The notes beneath the pieces are model-generated. The model did no database searches, was not told the DNA's origin, and worked only from the letters and a program-made list of their open reading frames with translations. From Candidatus Binatota bacterium (lineage in GTDB: Bacteria > Desulfobacterota > Binatia > UBA1149), in the NCBI GenBank assembly GCA_012960245.1, contig DUBO01000038.1, forward strand, positions 10,627-74,626: a stretch of 64,000 bases of DNA, read 5' to 3'. Of the stretch, positions 48,434 to 64,000 are shown one piece after another. Within the stretch, counting starts at the first letter, position 1, and each line of letters opens with the position of its first letter. The translations under genes were made by a program, and so were the position numbers.

Positions 48434-49672
48434 GTGAGCACGCCCGACGACTACGACCTGTTTGCGCCCGACACCATCGCCAGCCCCTGGGAGTTCTATG
48501 CCGCGTTGCGCGAGCACGCCCCGGTGTACCCGCTCGAACAGACCGGTTACAGCTTGGTGTCGCGCTATGACGACTGCCGCGCCGCGGCACTGGACACCGA
48601 TACTTTTTCGTCCAACCTGGTCGCCATGGTGGTGGGGCTGACCGGGCAGGCCCCGGCGCTGCTCGAAGTTTCATCAGCGACGACCCGGCCGGTGGACGTG
48701 CTCGCCATAGCCGACGAGCCGGTGCACGCCCGCCAGCGCAAGGTGGCCAACAGCGCGATGACCCCCCGGCGTGTAGCCGCGATGGAAGACAGCCTGCGCA
48801 GCCTGGCCGGCCAACTTGTGGAAACGTTTCTCGCCCGTGACTCCAGTGACGACTGGATGCAGGCGGTGGCCAACGAAATGCCCGTGCAGGTGGTCTGTCG
48901 GCTGGTGGGCCTGCCGCTCGAAGACCGAGTGCAGTTGCGCGCCTGGGCCAACGACGGCTCGGCGCTGTTGTCGGGAGTGCTCAACGACGAACAACTGGCG
49001 CGCTACGCCGCAAGCGTGATGAAACTCAACGCCTACTTGGCCGACGCTTTTCGCGCAGCCCGCGACTCGCCGGGAGACAACGTGCTGGGCGTACTCGCCC
49101 GCGCGACCCACGAAGACGAGGACTTCCTCAGCGAGGACGAGGTAGTGGCCATTCTGCTGCAATTGCTGTCGGCGGGCAGCGAATCGACCGCGGCCCTGCT
49201 GGGCAGCGCCGTACTGCTGCTGGCCCGTGACCCGCAACTGCAGCAGGCACTGCGCGCTGACCCCTCGGCGATACCCGACTTCATAGAGGAAACCCTGCGC
49301 CTGGAGTCCCCCTTCCAGGGACACTTCAGGCTCGCCACGCGCGACTGCAGGCTGGGCGACGTCGAGATAGCCTCCGGCACGCGCCTGATGCTCTTGTGGG
49401 GCTCGGCCAACCGCGATCCATCCCAGTTTGCAGACCCCGACAGGCTACGGCCCGGCCGCGACAACGCCTCGGCTCACCTCGCTTTCGGGCTTGGCATACA
49501 CCACTGCATAGGGGCGGCGCTGGCACGCATGGAGACGCGGGTGGCGCTCGAAGAACTGCTGGCACGCACGCGCTCGTTCGAACTCGCCGACCGGGATCAA
49601 ACGCCGTCCTACCTGCCCAGTGTCATGATACGACGCCTGGCACGGATGCCACTGACGGCTACCCCCCGCTGA
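48434..49672 (+). CDS. Cytochrome P450
   Basis: FGLGIHHCIGAALARME haem loop, AGSESTA I-helix, ETLR. GTG start. Confidence 0.9.
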   Translation: MSTPDDYDLFAPDTIASPWEFYAALREHAPVYPLEQTGYSLVSRYDDCRAAALDTDTFSSNLVAMVVGLTGQAPALLEVSSATTRPVDVLAIADEPVHARQRKVANSAMTPRRVAAMEDSLRSLAGQLVETFLARDSSDDWMQAVANEMPVQVVCRLVGLPLEDRVQLRAWANDGSALLSGVLNDEQLARYAASVMKLNAYLADAFRAARDSPGDNVLGVLARATHEDEDFLSEDEVVAILLQLLSAGSESTAALLGSAVLLLARDPQLQQALRADPSAIPDFIEETLRLESPFQGHFRLATRDCRLGDVEIASGTRLMLLWGSANRDPSQFADPDRLRPGRDNASAHLAFGLGIHHCIGAALARMETRVALEELLARTRSFELADRDQTPSYLPSVMIRRLARMPLTATPR

Positions 49673-50477
49673 CCGTTGAGCAGGCGTCGAAGGCCGCCAG
49701 CATCTCGTCGTAGCGTTGCTCGACTATGGCGCGAACCTCGGGGTGGCTGAGAATGAAAAAATCGTCTCGCTCCACCGCGGCTACCACCAGGCGGCCCACC
49801 TCGTCGGGGTCCATGCCCTCGGTGAACAGCTCGGCGAACTCGGCCGGCGATTGCTCGGGCCCCCCGTAAGCCTGCTGGCGATTGCGCCCCGCGTTCCAGA
49901 TGTCGGTGGCTACCAGGCCGGGGCACAGTATGCTCACGCCTATACCGTCGTCGACAAGCTCCCGGCGCATGACGTCCGACAAGGCCAGCACCGCGTGTTT
50001 GCTGGCGGTGTAGATGCCCATGCCGGCAAAGGGGATTCCCAGGCTGTGTTCCGACCCGGTGTTGACCACGTGAGCGGGGCCGCCCTGCTGCTTGAAGCGG
50101 GGTACGAAGGCCGCGCAGCCGTTGAGCACGCCGAAGACGTTGACGTCGAACACCCACCTCGCGTTGTCCTCGGGCAGTTCGGCCACCGCGCCCATGGTAC
50201 CTACGCCGGCGTTGTTGCAAAGCAGCCGCACCTGGCCCAGCTCGGCAAACGCGCGCTCGGCCAGCGCTTCGAGTGACTCGCGACTGGTCACGTCGCACTC
50301 AACGGCTATGCTTTCGACGCCGGTGGCGGCAAGCTCGTCGGCCACCTCGCGGGCGCGGTCGAGTTCTATGTCGGCCACGGCCACCGACACGCCGCGCGCA
50401 GCCAGCTCGCGGGCCACGCCTCGGCCTATGCCGCTGGCGGCGCCGGTCACGACGGCCGCCATGCGCTCGATCTTCAT
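49659..50477 (-). CDS. SDR-family oxidoreductase
   Basis: TGAASGIG, NNAG, YTASK. RBS GGGAGG 9 nt before ATG 50477. Confidence 0.85.
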   Translation of the reverse strand: MKIERMAAVVTGAASGIGRGVARELAARGVSVAVADIELDRAREVADELAATGVESIAVECDVTSRESLEALAERAFAELGQVRLLCNNAGVGTMGAVAELPEDNARWVFDVNVFGVLNGCAAFVPRFKQQGGPAHVVNTGSEHSLGIPFAGMGIYTASKHAVLALSDVMRRELVDDGIGVSILCPGLVATDIWNAGRNRQQAYGGPEQSPAEFAELFTEGMDPDEVGRLVVAAVERDDFFILSHPEVRAIVEQRYDEMLAAFDACSTVSGG

Positions 50478-50998
50478 GCGCTGTCGCCTCCCACCGCGCT
50501 GCGCGCCTCGTTGAGCATGTCCGCGGGCGAGGGCCGACCCATGGCGCCATAAGCGTTGAGCATGCCAGGACGCTGCACCCACTCGTGCAGGAGCTCGTGG
50601 GCGCCATCGCCACCCGCTCGCAACACGAAGTAAGCCGGCTGCAGGAACGCACCCTCGGGGTACTTGCGGGACATCGGGTGACCACTGCTGGTCGGCACGT
50701 CAAAAAGTTTGAGCGAACTCAACGAGGGATCGCTCAACAGCGTAAACGGTAGTCCCAGGGCGCGGCGCATACGCGACAGCGCGCGTGGGCTGTCGGCCGA
50801 TATACCCAGCAGGCGGACACCGGTTTCGGAAAAATCATCGGCAAGTGAGGAGAGCCCCTTCCAGGAGCGCACACAGAAGGGTCACCAGTAGCCGCGAAAA
50901 AACACCAAGCCCAGGGTGTCCCCGCCGGCAAGAGCTTCGGCGAGACTGAAGTCGGCGTCTTCGTGGGTTTTCAGAAGAAGATCGGCAGCATCATTCAT
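50474..50998 (-). CDS. Thioredoxin-fold redoxin (AhpC/TSA-redoxin-like) with an in-frame TGA at the first Cys of the CxxC motif (W-[TGA]-P-F-C): candidate selenoprotein, or gene disrupted by a nonsense mutation
   Basis: Minus-strand frame from ATG 50998 reads MNDAADLLLKTHEDADFSLAEALAGGDTLGLVFFRGYW-TGA(50882-50884)-PFCVRSWKGLSSLADDFSETGVRLLGISADSP...LLSDP, continuous in one frame. ATGA overlap with the downstream SDR start. 6-bp stem (CCCUUC/GAAGGG) directly 3' of the UGA. Confidence 0.5.
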
Positions 50999-51060
50999 GG
51001 GCGCAATCTACGCCCTGGCACTCGCCCTCGCAACGCAGCTGCCCTGCCGGGTTCCCAGCT

Positions 51061-52725
51061 TCAGTTCGGCCAGTAAATATACTCGTCGCCCTCGTTCATC
51101 GTGTCTTCGCCGGTCTTATCAACGGGCACCGGTACTTCTACCAACGATGGCCACATCGGTTCGGCCTGCTCGGCGTTGTGCCTGGCGAGCAGGTCCTCCA
51201 GTTCGGCGACCTTCCCTGGATTAATCTCGGCCAGGTTTTCCTGCTCGGTCGGATCATCGACCATGTTGTAGAGCCAGCGTTTCGCCGGCCGGTCAGATAC
51301 CTGCAGCTTCCAACCACCCGACAGCACCGCCTGGTAGTAGCCCTGCCTCCAGAACACCGCCTCGTGCGGGCTCCCCTGTTCCTCCCCGGCTATAAACGGC
51401 AGCAGGTCTACCCCGTCGACCTTCTTGTCTGTCCAACTCCCCCCACCCCCGGCGGCCACCGCTGTGGCCATTATATCCACGTGAGAAACCGGCTCGTGGT
51501 ACACCAGTCCCGGCTCTATCCGGGCCGGCCATTTAACAAAAAACGGCACGTGGGTTCCTCCCTCGAACAGGGTGATCTTCCAGCCCCGGTAAGGATCGTT
51601 TATCCCCGGCAACCCTATGTACCCGGCACCGCCGTTATCGCTGGTGAACACCACCATCGTGTTGTCCTCCAGCCCGTGCTCACGCAACGCCGCAAGTACC
51701 CGGCCGACACTGCGATCGACCGACCGCACCATGCCGGCGTATACCCGCAGGCGGTGGTCTTCTATGTGGTCGAGCGCATCGTAATCGGCCCGGGTGGCCT
51801 GCAACGGGGTGTGCACACCCCAGTGCGCCAGGTAAAGAAGAAATGGTCGGTTCCTGTTCGCCTCGATTGCCGCGACCGCCTGGTCTGCCAGGTAGTCGGT
51901 CAGGTACCCCTCGGGCTCAAACCATTCCGAGTCATTGAAACTGACCGCGTACTGCAGGATCGCCCATAGCACCCGATCGATGACGTCAAAATCCTGCTTG
52001 GAGTTAACGACGCCAGGCGAGTCCTCGGGCAAGTAGAGACCGCTTTCCATCATGATACTCTCGTCAAAGCCCTGGGCTGACGGCCTGAAGCGCGGACTGC
52101 GTCCCAGGTGCCACTTGCCAAGATGCATGGTGTGATAGCCGCGGTCGCCAAGCGCCTCGGCCAGGGTGACCTCCGACGGTGGCATACCCATCTCCTCCAT
52201 CGGCATGCGGTTGTCAGCCTTGTCCTCGTCTATCACCAATTGGTGTAGTCCCGGGTCGTGGTGGCTGAGCACGCGCGCAATCCTGGTCATGGCCGCCGGC
52301 GTAGGCGTAAACTCGAACCCGAAGCGGGTGGAATACCTGCTGGTCATAATGGAAGCCCGCGACGGGGCACACACCGCGTTGCCAGCGTAGCCGTTTACCA
52401 GGTCCGCACCGTTGCGTGCCACCGAGTCTATGTTCGGCGTGGGGACGGTGCCGCCCGCCACGCCACCACCGTGGAGCGTGATGTCGTTGAACCCCATGTC
52501 GTCAACGAGAATCACGACTATGTTTGGCTTCCGCTGATCCGGGGGCAGGTCGGCAGTTGCCGGCCCCTGCTGCCAGGTCACCGGACGGTTTGCGGCTACG
52601 CTGTTACGCATGCGGCTGGCCAGTCCTATGGCCTCGATCATCAGCCACTCGCGCATCGAGTAAGCACACGCGGCCAGCAGCGCCACGACCACCAGCACGG
52701 ACAGTGTTTTCTTACCTATCATCAT
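51061..52725 (-). CDS. Sulfatase (formylglycine-dependent arylsulfatase family)
   Basis: Signal/TM N-terminus. CAPSRASIMTSRY (C-x-P-x-R) active-site signature, DDMGFND metal site. Confidence 0.9.
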   Translation of the reverse strand: MMIGKKTLSVLVVVALLAACAYSMREWLMIEAIGLASRMRNSVAANRPVTWQQGPATADLPPDQRKPNIVVILVDDMGFNDITLHGGGVAGGTVPTPNIDSVARNGADLVNGYAGNAVCAPSRASIMTSRYSTRFGFEFTPTPAAMTRIARVLSHHDPGLHQLVIDEDKADNRMPMEEMGMPPSEVTLAEALGDRGYHTMHLGKWHLGRSPRFRPSAQGFDESIMMESGLYLPEDSPGVVNSKQDFDVIDRVLWAILQYAVSFNDSEWFEPEGYLTDYLADQAVAAIEANRNRPFLLYLAHWGVHTPLQATRADYDALDHIEDHRLRVYAGMVRSVDRSVGRVLAALREHGLEDNTMVVFTSDNGGAGYIGLPGINDPYRGWKITLFEGGTHVPFFVKWPARIEPGLVYHEPVSHVDIMATAVAAGGGGSWTDKKVDGVDLLPFIAGEEQGSPHEAVFWRQGYYQAVLSGGWKLQVSDRPAKRWLYNMVDDPTEQENLAEINPGKVAELEDLLARHNAEQAEPMWPSLVEVPVPVDKTGEDTMNEGDEYIYWPN

Positions 52726-52743
52726 CAGTTTCTTTCCGTCGCC

Positions 52744-53829
52744 CTATTGATACCGCGCGATTACCTGCTCGGCGAACTCGCGATAGCAGTCGCGGGCGAA
52801 CTCCATGGGGGGTAACAGGGTGACTTCCTTCAGTCCCATGGCCTCCTGTGCCCGAAGCTGCTCGATGATCTCGTCGGGCTCACCCACCAGCCCGCCCGAA
52901 GCGCGTATTGTGGCCGGGGTGACAAAGCGCCGCTCGGCCGGCACCAGGTAAGTGCAGTGGCCGTCGTGGATCTGCAGGTAGCGGCGGTCCTCGGGGGTTT
53001 CCATGCCGTCGACGTAGGCCTTGTACTCGTCCCAGGTGTCGCGGATCGACTCATCGATAAAATCGTCGCTGCCCGCCTGCCGGGCCAGCTCCCAGAAGAA
53101 GTGCAGGCTGGCGGTGACCATCGACCCCACCTGGTCTATCACCCGGTCGTCGGTGAGCTGTTCACCGGGCTTGAGCACGCAGGAGAAGGTGAGCGCGGCA
53201 GTGTGGTAGTCGTTCTCCAGGTCACGCCCCGCGGCCGAAGCTGCCTTCAGGGCCAGGCCCAGGTTGTGCTTGAAAGCCGGCTCCGGCTCGCCGCCTGCCG
53301 AGATACGACCGTCGCCGTACATGCCAGCGGCCTTGAGCGCCAGCGGGCCGTTGGCGGCCACGTATATGGGCACCGGCTGCTCGGTGTTCATGAAGCCCAG
53401 TTCTTCGTGCAGGAACTTTATCTCGCGCGTCACCCCGTCCTGCGTGTACTCCACCTGGCGGCCATGCAGCAGCTCCCTGACCACGTGCAGGTACTCGCGA
53501 AAGGGGCGCGGCTTGACCGGGTCCATGCCCATCACGCGCATGGCAGTGTGACCGGTGCCCACGCCCAGGAACACGCGCCCGGGCGCAAGCTGGTTGATGC
53601 TGGCAATGGAATGGGCAGTGACTGGCGCCGTGCGCGTGCCGGCGATCGACACGCCGGTGCCCAGGCGAATACGCGAGGTGTTGGCCGCAGCGAGCGCCAG
53701 CACCGCGTAGCAGTCGGACCAGATCATCTGCGAATCGGGTACCCAGCCGTGGTCGTAACCGAGGTCCTCGGCAAAACTGAGCAACTGCCAGTCGTCTATC
53801 CGCGGGGCTATCATAGCTCCAAACTTCAT
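52744..53829 (-). CDS. LLM-family flavin/F420-dependent oxidoreductase
   Basis: Luciferase-like TIM-barrel motifs (GVGTGHT, FWEL). Confidence 0.75.
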   Translation of the reverse strand: MKFGAMIAPRIDDWQLLSFAEDLGYDHGWVPDSQMIWSDCYAVLALAAANTSRIRLGTGVSIAGTRTAPVTAHSIASINQLAPGRVFLGVGTGHTAMRVMGMDPVKPRPFREYLHVVRELLHGRQVEYTQDGVTREIKFLHEELGFMNTEQPVPIYVAANGPLALKAAGMYGDGRISAGGEPEPAFKHNLGLALKAASAAGRDLENDYHTAALTFSCVLKPGEQLTDDRVIDQVGSMVTASLHFFWELARQAGSDDFIDESIRDTWDEYKAYVDGMETPEDRRYLQIHDGHCTYLVPAERRFVTPATIRASGGLVGEPDEIIEQLRAQEAMGLKEVTLLPPMEFARDCYREFAEQVIARYQ

Positions 53830-57484: not shown

Positions 57485-58285
57485 ATGGACTACGAGCAGA
57501 TCACCTACGAAGTACGCGACCAGGTGGCACTGATCACGCTTGACCGGCCCGACAAGCTCAACGCGTGGACGCCACAGATGAGCGAGGAGCAGGCCCACGC
57601 CGTCGCGCGCGCCAACGCCGACAACGCTGTGGGTGCCATCGTCACGACCGGTGCCGGCCGCGGTTTTTGCGCTGGCGCCGACATGGGCGACACCTTCCAG
57701 TCGCGCATAGACGGTGTTGACCCCGGCCACAACACCCAGGACGGATCGGGAGGAATGCCCGCAGGCCTCGACTGGGTGGCGCTGGTGCGCGAGTCCAAGC
57801 CCATGATTGCCGCGGTCAACGGCGCGACCGTCGGCATCGGGCTTACCATGCTGCTGCCCTTCGACGTCATACTGGCGTCGGACAAGGCGCGCCTGGGCAT
57901 GGGCTTCATCAAGATGGGGCTGGTGCCCGAGCTGGCCAGCACCCATTTCCTGGTGCAGCGCATGGGCTTTGGCCGCGCATCGGAGATGTGCCTTACAGGT
58001 CGCCTTTACAAGGCCGACGAGGCACTGGAGGCCGGCCTGGTGGACCGGGTCGTGGCTCACGACGACCTCGTGGCCGCCGCCCTGCAACTGGCCGGCGAGA
58101 TCGCGGCCAACCCCGTGCCGCAGTTGCTCATGACCAAGCGGCTACTGACCGAAAACGGCAGCGCCACCGACCTCACCCTGGTGCAGGAGTCGGAGAGCGC
58201 CTTGCTGCGCGAGTGCTGGAAGACACCCGAGCACGCCGAGGCGGTGGCGGCTTTTATCGAGAAACGACCACCGCGTTTTCGCTAG
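57485..58285 (+). CDS. Enoyl-CoA hydratase/isomerase (crotonase) family protein
   Basis: ITLDRPDKLNAW ... GAGRGFCAGADM oxyanion-hole motifs. Confidence 0.85.
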   Translation: MDYEQITYEVRDQVALITLDRPDKLNAWTPQMSEEQAHAVARANADNAVGAIVTTGAGRGFCAGADMGDTFQSRIDGVDPGHNTQDGSGGMPAGLDWVALVRESKPMIAAVNGATVGIGLTMLLPFDVILASDKARLGMGFIKMGLVPELASTHFLVQRMGFGRASEMCLTGRLYKADEALEAGLVDRVVAHDDLVAAALQLAGEIAANPVPQLLMTKRLLTENGSATDLTLVQESESALLRECWKTPEHAEAVAAFIEKRPPRFR

Positions 58286-58342
58286 CCCGACCATCCACCA
58301 TTTTCAGACAAGGACGTCGTAAGAGACCCCGTCCAGCTGCAG

Positions 58343-61300
58343 CTACTGGTCCAGCTGGCGAACCCTGTGTATTACCGCTTCGATTGTCACCGGCACGGGA
58401 CAGTTAACAATATGCCGAGCGTCGCTTGGCGAATTCGGATGCTCAAAATCATAGTTGTCAGACCCCACATTTGGCGGTGGCGGGAATTCAAGGACTTCCA
58501 ATTTACCCTCGGCCCTGAGCCGCTGAATCTGCTTGACCCCTTTAAGGACCTCGCTCGCCGGCTCCTTCCAGTGAGCAAAACCGATGTGCCACATCGGACT
58601 GTAATCGTCCTCTGGCCTAAAGTAGGAGGGCACTCCCACCTGGCTGCCGAACGGGCCACCACCCAGGAATCCAAAACCGTCGCTTGGCGTCGGTGGATAG
58701 GTTGGATCTATCGGCGCTGGGGGCAGCGACTGGATCAGGGGAACTCCGACGCTTCCAAGGTTCTTATACATTGGTACATAGGGGACTCCCATCGCCCTTG
58801 CCGGACCAAATGGATAGGTGTCCAGGACTATGTAGTAGGGAAGATAATCACCTTCTCCCGCCCAAGCCTTGTGAAGCTTGAAGGTGATCGACGGATCTGG
58901 TCCGACCGTGTCCAGTGCCAGCACATGCCCCGATGCGTCCCTGTCACCCCAGAATTCACCGTTGTAAAAACAAGTCGAGTTGGGAGGTTCATCTGGAAAA
59001 CTGACACAACTCAGGTCAATCCGATTGTGATGCCATTCCTCGTCGCCCCACTTTGCAAACACGGCATTAACGATAACATCCTGCCCGTCAATCGTGACTC
59101 GACGCAAAGGCGAATACGTATTCAGGTCATCAACGTCTGGAATTAAATCCGGATTCTTGCAGGGTCTTCCCGAACCGGAATCGATACCATCAGACACCCT
59201 GCAAGCCGGCGAGGCCCATATCGGATTGGGCACGTTCCCGTAAAACGTCCAGTGACCCGTAACTGGATCAATGGTTGCATCCCCGGTAGCCGCTATTGGC
59301 GTGCCGGTTAATTTACCAGCCCAGGCCAGGCCCATTTCCTCGGCCAGGGCTTCGTCGCTGATGTCGTGCAGGAAGAACCATACGGGGGTCAGTACGCCGC
59401 CGTCGTCGTTCGTTCCCTGCATCAGCGGGAAGGTAATGGTACCGCGTTCGTTGGGCTGCGGGTCAAGGGCGTCGCCGAGCGGAATATCCCTTATGTCGTC
59501 TAACTCGCCGATTACCGCCCCATCCACCCAGATATCCACAGGGTCAACCTGCGGTCCGTATTCGCCAACAGCGTCTCCGGTTCTGTATGTAGGCAGTGCG
59601 TGGGTGTCCACGTAGCTTACCCCGTCCCACGAGGGGATAGGTGTCGGCATGACCAGGGTCTGCCCCGGATGCTCAATATCCCAGCGCAACAGCATGGCGT
59701 GGTCCTCGTGCTGCGTGTTGTGGCAATGCTCCATGAAGGTGCCCGCGAACTCCCGGAAGCGAAGTGCGATCTCCACCATCACCCCACTGTCGGCCTGTGG
59801 TCCGAGCCGGTACACGTCCTTGCGAGCCCACTTTTCCCACTCGGGCGGCTCCTGGCCGTCACGTCTCAGTATGATCCCCTCCTCAAAGTGGATGTGTATC
59901 GGGTGGCTCCAGGTTCCGCTGTTGAGAAGGCGCCAGACCTCCAGCCCACCGGAATTTTTCTCGGGAGCCGCAGATAGACGGCGGGGGTCCATTCCGAACC
60001 CCTTGCCGCCATCGGTCTCTATGACCCAGGGGCGATCGTCGGTGGGCTGCCTCTCAAATTCAAAGGTGCGGTGAAGAGCCGCGTCCAGCTCTGCCTGCGC
60101 GGGCATCTGGATGGGGATCATCTTCTGCCCGCCGGCCACGTAGTCCATTGGATCAAGACTGTTGTCGACCCCGGCGTACTCGGTAACACGGAACTCCATG
60201 AATTTACCTACAACCGGGTCACCGTCGATCCAGCGGTCGGCAATGCCATCGGGGGGAACCGTGTCGTCGATGGTAACCGGTGCGTAGGCTCCGCTTACGA
60301 TATCGGCCAGGGGAATCACTTCGTCGGTGACTTGCCCGTTCTTGTGTTGCAGCAGGTTGACCAGGTACAGCTTGTCACCCGGTTCGAAGTTGGCAAAGTC
60401 GATGATGACGTCGTAGCGTTCGGCTATGCCGAGGGTCGGCAGCTCGCCGTTACTGAACTCCACGGCGTGCTCCATGATGTTGCCGTCGTTGGCAACCATG
60501 TGGAACGGGACCGGGTTGCCGGCCTCGTCGACCAGCGCCAGCTTGAAGTAGCGAGATACCGAGGCATTCAGGACGCGGAAGCGGTACCGGCGGGCACGAA
60601 CGTCGAAGTAAGGCTTGTACAGCCAGTTAACGGTCATAACGTCGCCGAGAAAGCCTTTCTGGTTGAAGGGGTTAAAACACAACTGCCCGTCACCATCAAA
60701 GGCTTTCTCTGCCAGCATCAGGTTGACGTCGTAATCGCGGTTGCCCCAGGGCAGCGCGGATCCACTGGGCAACCTCAGGTTGATGCCGTCATTGACGGAT
60801 TCGTTGCCGCGATCGAGTGAACTGTAATAGTTCATCATCGCGGCGCTGCCCTTGTAGACGTTCTGGGCAGTGAAATCGAGCATGTGATCGTGGAACCAGT
60901 GGGTGCTCATGGTCTCGTGCCAGTCGCCCTTGATCCGCTTTATGCCTCCGTTGCCCATGGGCATCCCTGCCCTTTTATCCCTCTTATTCGTATTGATGGA
61001 GTCGTGTCCTGCGAGCACCATCGGCCACCTGTAGTCGTAGAACTGGCCGGGAAAGAAAAACGCGTTGGCGAACCCGTCGCTCTCAGCCGGGTTATGGCCG
61101 TTGTGCTCGTGGGTGGTCAGCGTGTGAACACCGAAACCACGGTTCTCGGCGACGTCGATCGGTAACGCATTGTAGTGGCGCATTACCAGGGGCTCGCCAT
61201 AACGCGCGGTGAGCAGCTTGGGGGGAAAAGTTCCGTCGAAAGTCCACACCGCGTCCGGATCCTGCAAAGGCATGCTGGCATGAAACCGGACCTCGATTCC

Positions 61301-62083
61301 CGACGTCGTGCCATCGGATCCAGCTGGTTCCGCGGTTGAATGATACAGTCCTGTGGGCCCGAATTCACCGTGCCTGTAGCGATGCCTCTGAGCTCTATCA
61401 CGCAGGCCGCGATTCTCCCGACCACCGGTTGTCGCAGTCTTGAAGTAAACCCTGGGCTTGAACTCATCCCACCGCTGGTGTGCCCATCCTTCCCCAGGCG
61501 GTCGTCCTTCGATCGGGGGGTCGTCAAGATCGCGGCCCAACCATGATTCAATCTTCGACTCCCACGGATTCTCGTCCGAGGTATTCGCCTTGCGCTTGGG
61601 GATAGGCCATACCCGGGCTTTCAAAAACTTATCCAGTTTTACTGAACGCGGATAAGCCTGGGGGTTGGCTGGTTTGGGTAGCCGTTTATGTTTGGGGCTA
61701 TCTTCGGCATGAATTCCACGCTTTGTGGTCCCAAATTCTTCCAATCGCAACATTTTCTGGCTGAAAGGCGTTGCGCCAAAAAGCGGACTCGGTGGGTAAT
61801 CGGTTGGCACGTTGAAGGTGCCAGAATCCCGCTGGGCAGTCACCGGTATGGCATTCTGCTCGCGGGTGTCTTCGGGGGTTCCAGTCAAGCCCCCCTCAAA
61901 ACTCCCCTCGTTTGCCTCGGGCAAACCCTCTGGCAGATCTCCCACGATCGGACCCGCACACGCCGAAGGATCTCCGGAAGGCGGGCACTGGGCATGCAGC
62001 GTCGGTGGGAAAAAACACGCAATGGCCAGAAAAAATAACGAACAATACAACCCTGGAAAACAATACCTACTAACTCGTCTCAT
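58343..62083 (-). CDS. Large secreted multicopper oxidase (1246 aa) with ~480-aa C-terminal extension beyond the T1 copper site
   Basis: Signal peptide. Four Cu-ligand motifs in order: HTLTTHEHNGH, WFHDHMLD, HPIHIHFEEG, HCHNTQHEDHAM(L). Confidence 0.85.
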   Translation of the reverse strand: MRRVSRYCFPGLYCSLFFLAIACFFPPTLHAQCPPSGDPSACAGPIVGDLPEGLPEANEGSFEGGLTGTPEDTREQNAIPVTAQRDSGTFNVPTDYPPSPLFGATPFSQKMLRLEEFGTTKRGIHAEDSPKHKRLPKPANPQAYPRSVKLDKFLKARVWPIPKRKANTSDENPWESKIESWLGRDLDDPPIEGRPPGEGWAHQRWDEFKPRVYFKTATTGGRENRGLRDRAQRHRYRHGEFGPTGLYHSTAEPAGSDGTTSGIEVRFHASMPLQDPDAVWTFDGTFPPKLLTARYGEPLVMRHYNALPIDVAENRGFGVHTLTTHEHNGHNPAESDGFANAFFFPGQFYDYRWPMVLAGHDSINTNKRDKRAGMPMGNGGIKRIKGDWHETMSTHWFHDHMLDFTAQNVYKGSAAMMNYYSSLDRGNESVNDGINLRLPSGSALPWGNRDYDVNLMLAEKAFDGDGQLCFNPFNQKGFLGDVMTVNWLYKPYFDVRARRYRFRVLNASVSRYFKLALVDEAGNPVPFHMVANDGNIMEHAVEFSNGELPTLGIAERYDVIIDFANFEPGDKLYLVNLLQHKNGQVTDEVIPLADIVSGAYAPVTIDDTVPPDGIADRWIDGDPVVGKFMEFRVTEYAGVDNSLDPMDYVAGGQKMIPIQMPAQAELDAALHRTFEFERQPTDDRPWVIETDGGKGFGMDPRRLSAAPEKNSGGLEVWRLLNSGTWSHPIHIHFEEGIILRRDGQEPPEWEKWARKDVYRLGPQADSGVMVEIALRFREFAGTFMEHCHNTQHEDHAMLLRWDIEHPGQTLVMPTPIPSWDGVSYVDTHALPTYRTGDAVGEYGPQVDPVDIWVDGAVIGELDDIRDIPLGDALDPQPNERGTITFPLMQGTNDDGGVLTPVWFFLHDISDEALAEEMGLAWAGKLTGTPIAATGDATIDPVTGHWTFYGNVPNPIWASPACRVSDGIDSGSGRPCKNPDLIPDVDDLNTYSPLRRVTIDGQDVIVNAVFAKWGDEEWHHNRIDLSCVSFPDEPPNSTCFYNGEFWGDRDASGHVLALDTVGPDPSITFKLHKAWAGEGDYLPYYIVLDTYPFGPARAMGVPYVPMYKNLGSVGVPLIQSLPPAPIDPTYPPTPSDGFGFLGGGPFGSQVGVPSYFRPEDDYSPMWHIGFAHWKEPASEVLKGVKQIQRLRAEGKLEVLEFPPPPNVGSDNYDFEHPNSPSDARHIVNCPVPVTIEAVIHRVRQLDQ

Positions 62084-62161
62084 AATTTATCCCCCTGCAG
62101 AGATGAAAAAAAACATGGCTAACTTAACTAAAATCCCCGTCAAGGGTGTAATCCAGAACAA

Positions 62162-62176
62162 GCAACTTGTGTACCA
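62162..62176 (-). promoter_or_regulatory. Sigma-54-like promoter TGGtAC-acaag-TTGC (minus strand) for the multicopper oxidase
   Basis: Plus strand gcaacttgtgtacca. GG-N10-GC preserved, one mismatch in the -24 box. 79 bp upstream of start 62083. Confidence 0.45.
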
Positions 62177-62217
62177 AGCTGAAAATGCCTGGCCCCACAG
62201 TCAATACAGGATGAGGT

Positions 62218-62253
62218 CGGGGCTGTGTTGTAAACCCAGGTTAGCGCTCGAAG
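62218..62253. promoter_or_regulatory. Copy B of the recurrent upstream element: TCGGGGCTGTG-N12-GTTAGCGCTCGAAG
   Basis: Identical 10-nt and 14-nt blocks to copy A. 64 bp upstream of the -24 box. Confidence 0.55.
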
Positions 62254-62398
62254 TCAAAAAGTCTGCACTCGAAGGTCAAAGGTCTGCAGATAACCGCAGC
62301 AAGGATGCAACAGCTTGCGCAGTGGCGTCGCAAGCCGGCAGCATAAAGAAAAATTGTAGAGATCCTCAACAGTGGCCGGTTGGGTGCCTACGCCCACA

Positions 62399-62475
62399 TG
62401 GGGGGGGATTCGCCCTTACGTGGGCGGTCAGCGCTGGATCCCCCCCCCCGAATGGGTTTGTGTGTGGGGGGGGGG
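62399..62475. repeat. Three long homopolymer tracts (G9, C10, G10) within 77 bp in the Sco-fusion/MCO intergenic region
   Basis: catGGGGGGGGG(62399-62407) ... gatCCCCCCCCCC(62440-62449) ... tgtgtGGGGGGGGGG(62466-62475). Confidence 0.8.
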
Positions 62476-62499
62476 CTGACGACCTCTGCGTCCTCCCGG

Positions 62500-63810
62500 T
62501 TATTTTACCTTCACCGGGACAGCCACGACCTGTGTTCTCCCGGATTCAAAGGAAAGCGTCATATTGATGGTCTGACCTGCTTCCGCTCGCCGGACCGGTT
62601 CCATGAGCATAAGATGCTTGCCTCCCGGGGCAAGCTTCGCCTGCCCCCCCGGGGGCACCAGGAGTTGTTCGACCTCCCTCATTCTCATCAACCCGTCGAC
62701 AACCGCCATTTCGTGCACCTCTATGCGACCGAAGGCCGGGGACTCTACCTTGACCAAGGAAACAGCCTCCTGGCCGACGTTAACAAGGGTCATATATCCG
62801 GCGTTAGCCGGGGCCCTGGCGTCTGCCTCGCGCACCCAGGCATCCATGACCGCCAGCACGTCTCCTTCCGGCTCGGCGTCGGCAACCGGAGCTGCCTCCT
62901 CCCGCAGCTCGCCCATCGAAGCAAGGTAGACAAGCAGGTCATCGGCCTCCTGCCTGTTCAGCCGCATATTCGGCATGACCAGATTCCCCCACTCTTCGAG
63001 CATGGCTACCGCGATCGGGTCCTCGTCAGCAATCATTTTGTCTGGTGCCTGCAGCCATCCAAGAAGCCACTGGCGATCGCGGCGCCCTGTTACTCCCATG
63101 AGATCCGGCCCGAGTGCGCCGGGTCGGGTCTCGCCGTCGACCGTGTGACAAACTGAACAACGAGTCCGAAACAACTGCTCTCCCGCCGACATGGGCCGCA
63201 GCTCAGGCGCCTTGTGATAACTCTGCTTGGAAAGAGGAGGGCACTTGGGGCACAGGCCATTCAGCTGAGACGCAAGAATGTAGGGGTTTTCTGTCGGCGC
63301 TCGCTTCATCCACTGCCCGGTAGCCTGGTTGCCGATCATCATGTTCAAGTTGTGATCGCCACTTCCGTCCTGGATCTCCTCCACGTACAGGCCGAGCTTT
63401 CTACGTAGCAGCGTGATGTCTTCTTCGTTACCGGTGAAGAAATCCCAGTGCGCACCGAATCTATCCTTGTACTCGCTCAGTATCGGCGGCTGGTCGTGTT
63501 CAGGGTCGATAGAGATCGAATAAAAAAAGATATCGTCGCCAATTCGATCACCCAGTATGTCCTGGACCTTTTTCAGCTGGGCCGTCTCAAGGGGGCAACT
63601 GTCCGGACAGCTGGTGAAGATAAAGTTAACCGCGACGATCTTTCCCTCGATAAGGTCGTCGAAAAACCGCACCTGTTCTCCGTCCTGGTTGGTCAGTTCG
63701 ACGTTTGGAAAATAGTTCCTGCCCCATGACGCGGCCACGGCAGACGAATAGAAAGCCAGCACCAAGGGCAGCACGATAAACCACCGGCAAAATTTCAAGC
63801 TACTTCTCAC
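62500..63810 (-). CDS. Sco1/SenC - cytochrome c - PCu(A)C fusion copper-chaperone protein, membrane-anchored
   Basis: N-terminal TM. FIFTSCPDSCP (Sco CxxxC). CSVCH haem-c motif. C-terminal GGKHLMLMEP (PCuAC H/M motif). Start placed at GTG 63810 (RBS aaagggg), since the upstream ORF extension lies in AT-rich promoter-like sequence. Confidence 0.75.
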   Translation of the reverse strand: MRSSLKFCRWFIVLPLVLAFYSSAVAASWGRNYFPNVELTNQDGEQVRFFDDLIEGKIVAVNFIFTSCPDSCPLETAQLKKVQDILGDRIGDDIFFYSISIDPEHDQPPILSEYKDRFGAHWDFFTGNEEDITLLRRKLGLYVEEIQDGSGDHNLNMMIGNQATGQWMKRAPTENPYILASQLNGLCPKCPPLSKQSYHKAPELRPMSAGEQLFRTRCSVCHTVDGETRPGALGPDLMGVTGRRDRQWLLGWLQAPDKMIADEDPIAVAMLEEWGNLVMPNMRLNRQEADDLLVYLASMGELREEAAPVADAEPEGDVLAVMDAWVREADARAPANAGYMTLVNVGQEAVSLVKVESPAFGRIEVHEMAVVDGLMRMREVEQLLVPPGGQAKLAPGGKHLMLMEPVRRAEAGQTINMTLSFESGRTQVVAVPVKVK

Positions 63811-64000
63811 GCGAGAAGAGATACCCCTTTTTCGATTCAATACAACTAGTAGACTACATTTATCAGCGAACCGGACCATCGCCGGCACACCGTCCGATTG
63901 GCACGGAAATCAGGGCAACGAGCCCTGGTACGTCAAAGATGCGGCCGGCAATTTTTCCGAGTTTTTCTCGGGCATGGATCGCATCCTCGACGACGACGGC

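Follow-up and report, generated by a model that had tools for sequence, protein, structure and literature searches.

Peroxiredoxin (Prx)-like selenoproteins with a UxxC motif, where U stands for selenocysteine (Sec), have been known since 2005, when they were described from the Sargasso Sea (PMC1088965). The family 'Prx-like 1' (pfam00578, UxxC) accounts for 225 sequences of the Global Ocean Sampling (GOS) data and is among the most abundant marine selenoprotein families (PMC2398784, Table 2), and a 2026 review counts the 'Prx-like thiol:disulfide oxidoreductase, PF00578, UxxC' among the families predicted with high confidence (PMC13188914). In the same review, the bacterial selenocysteine insertion sequence (SECIS) is modeled with an apical loop of 3-9 nucleotides (nt), a spacing of 16-37 nt and ΔG ≤ -7.5 kcal/mol (PMC13188914, Fig. 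2 legend), with a G within the first two loop positions, a stem of at least 4 bp, and a loop pattern N1-G-[G/U]-N-N2 in which N1 and N2 are able to pair (PMC13188914). The present analysis concerns a redoxin gene with an in-frame TGA in a 64,000-nt (64-kb) stretch of DNA from a Candidatus Binatota bacterium (contig DUBO01000038.1); the whole stretch is called here the window, and all coordinates without another locus name refer to it. With a probability of about 0.9, the minus-strand sequence 50998→50474 encodes one 174-residue, SECIS-dependent selenoprotein, a cytoplasmic Prx-fold redoxin in which UGA 50884-50882 is read as Sec. The basis of this interpretation is the conservation of the TGA, the Sec/Cys pairing with homologues, a covarying hairpin, selection on both halves of the gene, the fold, and the placement in a family.

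The coding sequence (50474..50998, minus strand) comprises 174 sense codons, including the one for Sec, plus the stop codon TGA 50476-50474, and specifies a Prx-like/AhpC-TSA-fold redoxin with the motif W-U-P-F-C. Its start was set at ATG 50998 because a TAG occurs in frame four codons 5' of it. Between this ATG and the final stop, the sole internal stop is the TGA at 50882..50884 (minus strand), which falls on the first Cys position of a CxxC motif in the context …LVFFRGYW-TGA-PFCVRSWKGL…. A previous inspection of the letters of the window by a model, referred to here as the sequence-only reading, had considered the frame continuous across this TGA and both its sides as parts of one thioredoxin-fold protein. 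The open reading frame (ORF) confirms the former. As to the latter, when the protein was searched with Cys in the place of Sec, the Pfam AhpC-TSA match (PF00578; E 7.6e-18, 65 bits versus a cut-off of 26) covered residues 3-116, uninterrupted across the TGA, and the Pfam Redoxin match gave an E of 3.1e-10. The 38 codons before Sec (50885..50998, minus strand) correspond to the β-strands leading into the active site, and orthologues can be aligned with the redoxin along its full length.

TGA is the commonest stop in the window, where it ends 30 of the 45 long ORFs with high GC content at third codon positions (GC3). A global reassignment of TGA (code 4 or 25) was rejected, since TGA terminates most genes in the window, the redoxin gene included. 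This gene contains UGA twice, once as the Sec codon, where a hairpin is present, and once as its own stop, in an ATGA overlap with the start of the following gene, which encodes a short-chain dehydrogenase/reductase (SDR).

Orthologues were collected from the contigs of close protein relatives and then by scans of genome and metagenome collections. A search of 5.8 billion proteins yielded only five close relatives (58-95% identity), all of them shortened calls of 109-132 amino acids (aa) starting after the TGA position, and an exhaustive HMMER search of 1.84 billion proteins, with the 135 post-Sec residues as the query, gave 73 representatives for the whole family. At the nucleotide level, 16 distinct orthologues were compared (the window, L014, L094, L011, L012, L095, L013, L015, L097, L016, L096, L001, L018, L098, L007 and L099). 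TGA was present at the identical codon in 16/16, with the upstream frame open and alignable. The same in-frame TGA was found in 4/4 further divergent members (P0016, P0017, P0020 and P0023, corresponding to L117-L121), whose identity with the window protein, over its post-Sec part, is approximately 41-46%. Considering all of them, the TGA is kept in 20/20 distinct homologous genes, at ~40-97% amino-acid identity. These loci are not one clonal sequence, as their nucleotide identity is 90-96% inside a clade and far lower outside it. The ratio of nonsynonymous to synonymous substitution rates (dN/dS, Nei-Gojobori) was 0.09-0.42 for the 32 codons before the TGA, in comparisons with six orthologues, and 0.17-0.32 for the part after it. 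The codons upstream of the TGA are thus under purifying selection and, therefore, the N-terminal piece is translated, and in frame with the rest.

These data bear on two ways in which the TGA could be accidental. One base change is enough to turn TGC or TGT into TGA, and the Sec machinery is not visible in the window, so that one could think of a pseudogene, in which a recent nonsense mutation killed an ordinary CxxC redoxin; this was one of the two options of the sequence-only reading. It is refuted by a TGA common to 20 distinct genes that differ as much as indicated above, by halves that remain in frame and under purifying selection on both sides, and by the lack of any Cys orthologue inside the subfamily together with a conserved hairpin that occurs with the TGA forms only; the pseudogene is accordingly very improbable. 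The picture that the sequence-only reading would have expected of it, with TGC/TGT in close relatives and no conserved SECIS, is the opposite of what was found. The second accident is a single wrong base introduced by sequencing or assembly, for which there is just the prior that metagenome-assembled genomes (MAGs) contain errors. The survey of the TGA drew on NCBI MAGs and on assemblies of ENA, Logan and JGI, which differ in sample and pipeline, and the identical codon recurs across these independent assemblies, which refutes the read error also contemplated by the sequence-only reading and leaves this explanation with a practically negligible probability.

Concerning the more distant homologues, TGC or TGT was found at the Sec codon (P0006-P0011, P0013-P0015, L102, L020, L100, L122 and others), in motifs of the W-C-P-x-C type such as FFRGHWCPFC or YRGKWCPFC. 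The alignment with Cys homologues proposed as a check in the sequence-only reading shows, then, a column with TGC/TGT in distant forms only. P0013-P0015, the nearest Cys forms of full length, share 42-46% identity with the post-Sec part of the window protein (46% in the case of P0013). No Cys orthologue was found above ~46% identity, all the sequences recovered there having TGA or being calls shortened at the same point. Two further observations concern the Cys-form relatives themselves: P0013 is a CxxS variant (W-C-P-F-S), and in P0019 (465 aa) and P0041 (561 aa) the entire redoxin domain is repeated in tandem, two or three times.

Downstream of the UGA, the messenger RNA can form a compact hairpin (50852..50870, minus strand), composed of an outer pair G50870-C50852, a C/U mismatch, a 5-bp core in which GCUCC (G50868-C50864) is paired with GGGGC (G50858-C50854), and an apical loop UGGAA (U50863-G-G-A-A50859, minus strand) where U-A is able to close a GGA triloop. 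The distance from the UGA to the loop is 18 nt. The hairpin agrees with all the constraints of the bacterial SECIS model: the loop has 5 nt with G in the second position, the spacing is 18 nt, the core has 5 bp, ΔG is -7.7 kcal/mol, which is borderline, and UGGAA matches N1-G-[G/U]-N-N2 with U-A as N1-N2. The core pairs are intact in 14/14 aligned sequences. A compensatory change C-G→U-A at the core occurs in L099 and L117, where it is accompanied by the amino-acid changes S→F and G→K, and the outer pair is inverted in L007 (G-C→C-G). In covariation score as well as in percentage of paired cells, the alignment surpassed 500/500 shuffles, and controls with slid register scored much lower. The hairpin alone has a ΔG of -7.7 kcal/mol in the window and as low as -11.4 in relatives, and from -8.4 to -17.6 kcal/mol when lineage-specific lower stems are included. 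Among the 16 orthologues, synonymous variation is zero over the hairpin codons (44-49, V-R-S-W-K-G), the lowest value of 157 six-codon windows (median 0.34). The sequence-only reading was thus wrong in stating that no canonical SECIS is present, and its proposal of a Sec candidate is strongly supported by the conserved TGA, the Sec/Cys pair and this covarying element.

The hairpin is specific to the TGA forms. In 11/11 Cys-form homologues it was absent from the equivalent position, where just 2-5 of 8 pairs can form; ΔG there was positive in 10/11 and -1.0 kcal/mol in the eleventh. L122, a Cys form, is without the hairpin although it retains the amino acids S-W-x-G-L.

Some variation was observed around the element. 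In L012, L013, L001, L007 and L099, lower stems join the codons just 3' of the UGA with codons ~35-45 nt downstream, as in L001 with CGGUUUG/CAAGCUG (total ΔG -16 to -18 kcal/mol), an extension that is missing from the window sequence. The divergent member L120/L121 carries the motif G-H-W-U-M-A-C (L120 ~50-130, L121 ~20-100), and its downstream hairpin is different (GGCCU…GGGCC), with no obvious fit to the UGGAA-loop SECIS of the other members.

The 6-bp stem CCCUUC/GAAGGG pointed out by the sequence-only reading does exist directly 3' of the UGA, with arms at 50881-50876 and 50862-50857 (whole element 50857..50881, minus strand), and is lengthened by RNAfold to 7-8 bp, with 8 pairs when extended. 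It is not the conserved element, as it breaks in divergent members: it is disrupted in L001 (PV codons CCG GUU; ΔG +1.1) and L099 (+4.4), with no compensatory changes. This alternative stem and the SECIS hairpin are mutually exclusive, both needing the segment GGAAGGG. RNAalifold on 11 sequences favored the alternative stem, which shows no covariation; this preference was set aside because the stem is broken in L001 and L099 and violates the spacing rule, its loop being too near the UGA for the bacterial SECIS model, and the alternative stem was rejected as the SECIS. The true element was recognized through comparative analysis only, not by the folding of a single sequence.

Several observations weigh against the reading of the gene as a selenoprotein. 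In the window, the alternative stem is slightly stabler than the SECIS hairpin (-9.2 versus -7.7 kcal/mol), and it is the minimum-free-energy structure when this sequence is folded singly. The hairpin is short, its ΔG in the window is just at the threshold, its covariation comes from few independent events (3 double changes in 14 sequences), and the local fold is ordinary when compared with shuffles (z = 0.85). It matches no Rfam family: the scan of the locus at E ≤ 10 returned no SECIS or other RNA family, apart from a chance CRISPR-DR29 match (E 6.8), and none was found over the whole 64-kb window at the gathering threshold. Finally, selA, selB, selD and tRNA-Sec were not found within the window and ~200 kb of related contigs. 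ARAGORN detected no tRNA gene anywhere in the window and no tRNA-Sec in the window and 19 related loci, and crude motif scans gave no SelA, SelB or SelD signatures, in agreement with the sequence-only reading, which had noticed no sel genes in the window. The probability given to the selenoprotein is not higher than 0.9 because the hairpin is short and marginal, because there are three double changes and because the machinery was not seen.

A third alternative is a UGA that is read through without Sec, near-cognate or suppressor decoding giving Trp or Cys and the hairpin acting as a generic stimulator. UGA is the leakiest stop codon in bacteria, a hairpin just 3' of a stop can promote read-through, and no Sec machinery was found in the sequences examined. 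This explanation is nevertheless improbable. The site is the catalytic Cys of CxxC, where Sec/Cys exchange is the rule among known selenoprotein families (PMC2398784, PMC1088965), the hairpin conforms to the specific loop pattern and spacing of the bacterial SECIS (PMC13188914) and not merely to a stem, Trp in the place of the nucleophile would inactivate the enzyme, and TGA works as a normal stop for most genes in the window.

If UGA 50884-50882 is decoded as Sec, as we prefer, the small SECIS hairpin folded by the messenger RNA directly 3' of it would be responsible and, by analogy with other bacteria, would recruit the SelB·GTP·Sec-tRNA(Sec) complex to the ribosome. The second UGA (50476-50474), which has no such hairpin, would produce termination, overlapping the start of the SDR. 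In the predicted protein, Sec would be the exposed N-terminal nucleophile, placed where the active-site helix begins, with Cys42 as the resolving residue. The catalytic cycle may then consist of the attack of Sec on a disulfide or hydroperoxide, a selenenylsulfide formed between Sec and Cys42, and a return to the reduced state through a thiol system, with both the reductant and the substrate as predicted parts of the model.

Concerning annotation, the public records P0001-P0005, P0016, P0017, P0020 and P0023 are all shortened after the Sec codon, with varying false starts, and the N-terminal fragments have been called as orphan ORFs of 35-40 aa (L001 9869-9991, L117 1381-1491, L118 1232-1342, L119 480-587). 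The mis-annotation of the subfamily is systematic: every record examined is a 'redoxin domain-containing protein' without its catalytic residue. Taken at face value, such calls would correspond to two products, one a peptide of 38 aa that stops at the TGA and the other a protein of 132 aa from GTG 50872, an in-frame GTG four codons past the TGA that gene callers have chosen. The shortened protein would be deprived of the first residue of the active site and of the β-strands before it, and its start is not conserved: gene callers placed it at different internal codons in P0003 and P0005, and in L120 at an ATG that follows the TGA directly. Moreover, conservation of the frame and of the amino-acid sequence runs without a break from the upstream into the downstream part. 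Two separate products are for these reasons hardly credible, and a single selenoprotein is preferred. To recognize the Sec codon restores the active site, so the finding is chiefly an annotation correction.

The SDR gene (49659..50477, minus strand) begins at ATG 50477-50475, which overlaps the redoxin stop TGA 50476-50474; the ATGA coupling described by the sequence-only reading is thus present at 50477-50474. Because of this overlap of start and stop, the redoxin and SDR genes are probably co-transcribed. The best NCBIfam match of the SDR was PRK06194 (1.4e-67, 228 bits, below the curated cut-off of 308), followed by SDR-family oxidoreductase models. The adjacency of redoxin and SDR was observed in L007/L008/L009/L010, L011 and L018 and is absent in L001; the pair occurs in 2/3 of the main clades, the third clade having a P450 gene as the neighbor. 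The genes around the redoxin of the window are a sulfatase, an LLM-class oxidoreductase, an α/β-hydrolase, the coupled SDR, a convergent P450, a ketopantoate-reductase-like gene, an APH-family kinase, an acyl-CoA dehydrogenase and an enoyl-CoA hydratase. The locus is a neighborhood of oxidative lipid or hydrocarbon metabolism, with no selenium genes among the neighbors.

Other features of the region can be mentioned. The convergent P450 (48434-49672, plus strand) and SDR (49659-50477, minus strand) genes overlap by 14 bp at their 3' ends (49659-49672). The sulfatase gene (51051-52750, minus strand), immediately upstream of the redoxin, is a presence/absence polymorphism: it is present in the window, L015, L016 and L095-L097, while in L014 (UBA1149), L094, L011 and L012 position 52751 joins almost directly to 51050. 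The GC content drops from ~65% to 56-59% in the last 6 kb of the window (58001-64000). Two scans for further in-frame TGA codons, one with ORF and GC3 filters and the other adding a filter for SECIS-like hairpins, gave in the window only off-frame or adjacent-gene artefacts; these filters were so crude that they missed the redoxin gene as well, and the outcome does not count as a negative result.

The window is ~96% identical in nucleotide sequence, over 10.6 kb, to a contig of the MAG 'bacterium UBP10_UBA1149', and close orthologues come from a 'Candidatus Binatia' MAG and from MAGs of the deep ocean that carry the label Deltaproteobacteria or Myxococcales. The host is an uncultured marine Binatota (UBP10) bacterium. 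Full-text literature searches gave no link of Binatota or Binatia with selenocysteine or selenoproteins, the sole co-occurrence being an unrelated entry in a reference list. Binatota/UBP10 and related deep-ocean MAGs can be taken as probable selenium users. The compact, covarying SECIS (…GCUCC-UGGAA-GGGGC…) could seed searches for more selenoprotein genes in these genomes.

A more ambitious proposal would join several elements: that this is the first sequence-level case of Sec decoding in Binatota, that the subfamily is Sec-obligate, a label used because no Cys orthologue was found above ~46% identity, and that the redoxin is a dedicated partner of the coupled SDR, with the P450 nearby, in lipid or hydrocarbon oxidation, where it might for example reduce a specific organic hydroperoxide or disulfide intermediate instead of serving in general antioxidant defence. 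Taken as a whole, this proposal is speculative and more probably wrong than right. Known Sec biology is unchanged by the finding, and its novelty is modest, within a family known since 2005.

With respect to described proteins, a structural comparison was made through the Cys orthologue P0014, whose identity with the window protein is 45% over the post-Sec part. Its AlphaFold model (predicted local distance difference test, pLDDT, 91.9) has the BCP/PrxQ fold, with a template-modelling (TM) score of 0.84-0.88 versus Sulfolobus Bcp4 (3hjp), and the top Foldseek matches were Bcp4 and BcpB (TM 0.78-0.88). In this model, the first long helix begins with the CxxC, and the region matching the N-terminal 38 codons forms the strands before the CxxC helix. 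As far as can be judged from the model, the fold is thus like that of BCP/PrxQ (Aeropyrum pernix BCP 2cx3, Sulfolobus Bcp4 3hjp). The active site of the window protein is, unlike theirs, thioredoxin-like, of the WCxxC type, and not the canonical Prx triad: in R-G-Y-W-U-P-F-C, Arg replaces the Pro and Sec replaces the Thr/Ser of PxxxT/SxxC. In the alignment with Aeropyrum BCP (2cx3), the second Cys of the motif falls on the peroxidatic Cys and Sec on the Thr/Ser of PxxxT/SxxC. The score with the NCBIfam equivalog for BCP, NF006960 (thioredoxin-dependent thiol peroxidase), was 29.2 bits versus a cut-off of 140, and that with the NCBIfam model of SelL-related redox proteins, NF040769, was 27.4 bits versus 120.

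The comparison with ResA/TlpA (Bacillus ResA 3c71 and 1st9) is complementary. In a profile search against PDB sequences, Sec was aligned to the leading Cys of the CxxC in ResA and both residues of U/CxxC fell on W-C-P-H-C, with ~100 alignable residues. ResA/TlpA proteins are membrane-anchored and extracytoplasmic. The window protein, although its motif aligns, starts with MNDAADLLLKTHED…, a polar N-terminus with no hydrophobic segment that could be an anchor, and has a longer C-terminal half of the Prx type, so it was not included among them. The protein is, in sum, a redoxin built on a Prx scaffold, with an active site of the thioredoxin type and Sec as the exposed nucleophile.

Concerning the RNA element, its resemblance to the SECIS of the Escherichia coli fdhF type and to the bSECISearch consensus resides in the position of the stem-loop, in the coding region immediately 3' of the UGA, in the small size of the apical loop, which has G-G as its second and third nucleotides, and in the 18-nt spacing. 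It differs from the fdhF-type SECIS in showing no sequence similarity to it, and in having a short stem of 5-7 bp with variable, lineage-specific lower stems.

The closest described system is the GOS family 'Prx-like 1', with which the window protein has in common PF00578, a UxxC with Sec in the first position, a SECIS directly downstream and a marine origin. The local context F-[FY]-R-G-[HY]-W-U-P-[FY]-C is also shared, as far as the GOS sequences consulted show, with members such as …FYRGHWUPYC… and …WUPFC…. Two GOS members were aligned with it over the full length, with the Sec/WCPxC columns coincident and BLASTP E values of 4e-10 and 2e-15. On the other side, the identity to these two members is just 22-25%, and the subfamily signature PTSSGHP…YPEGAFLQPAYF… did not appear in the part of the GOS supplementary sequences that was searched. 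The window subfamily is also set apart by the lack of a Cys orthologue above ~46% identity, by its Binatota-type MAG hosts and by the frequent coupling to an SDR. Because the UxxC context is shared and the full-length alignment brings the Sec residues into coincidence, the window protein is, on sequence grounds, a distant member, forming a new subfamily, of the known Prx-like UxxC selenoprotein family, rather than a new kind of family.

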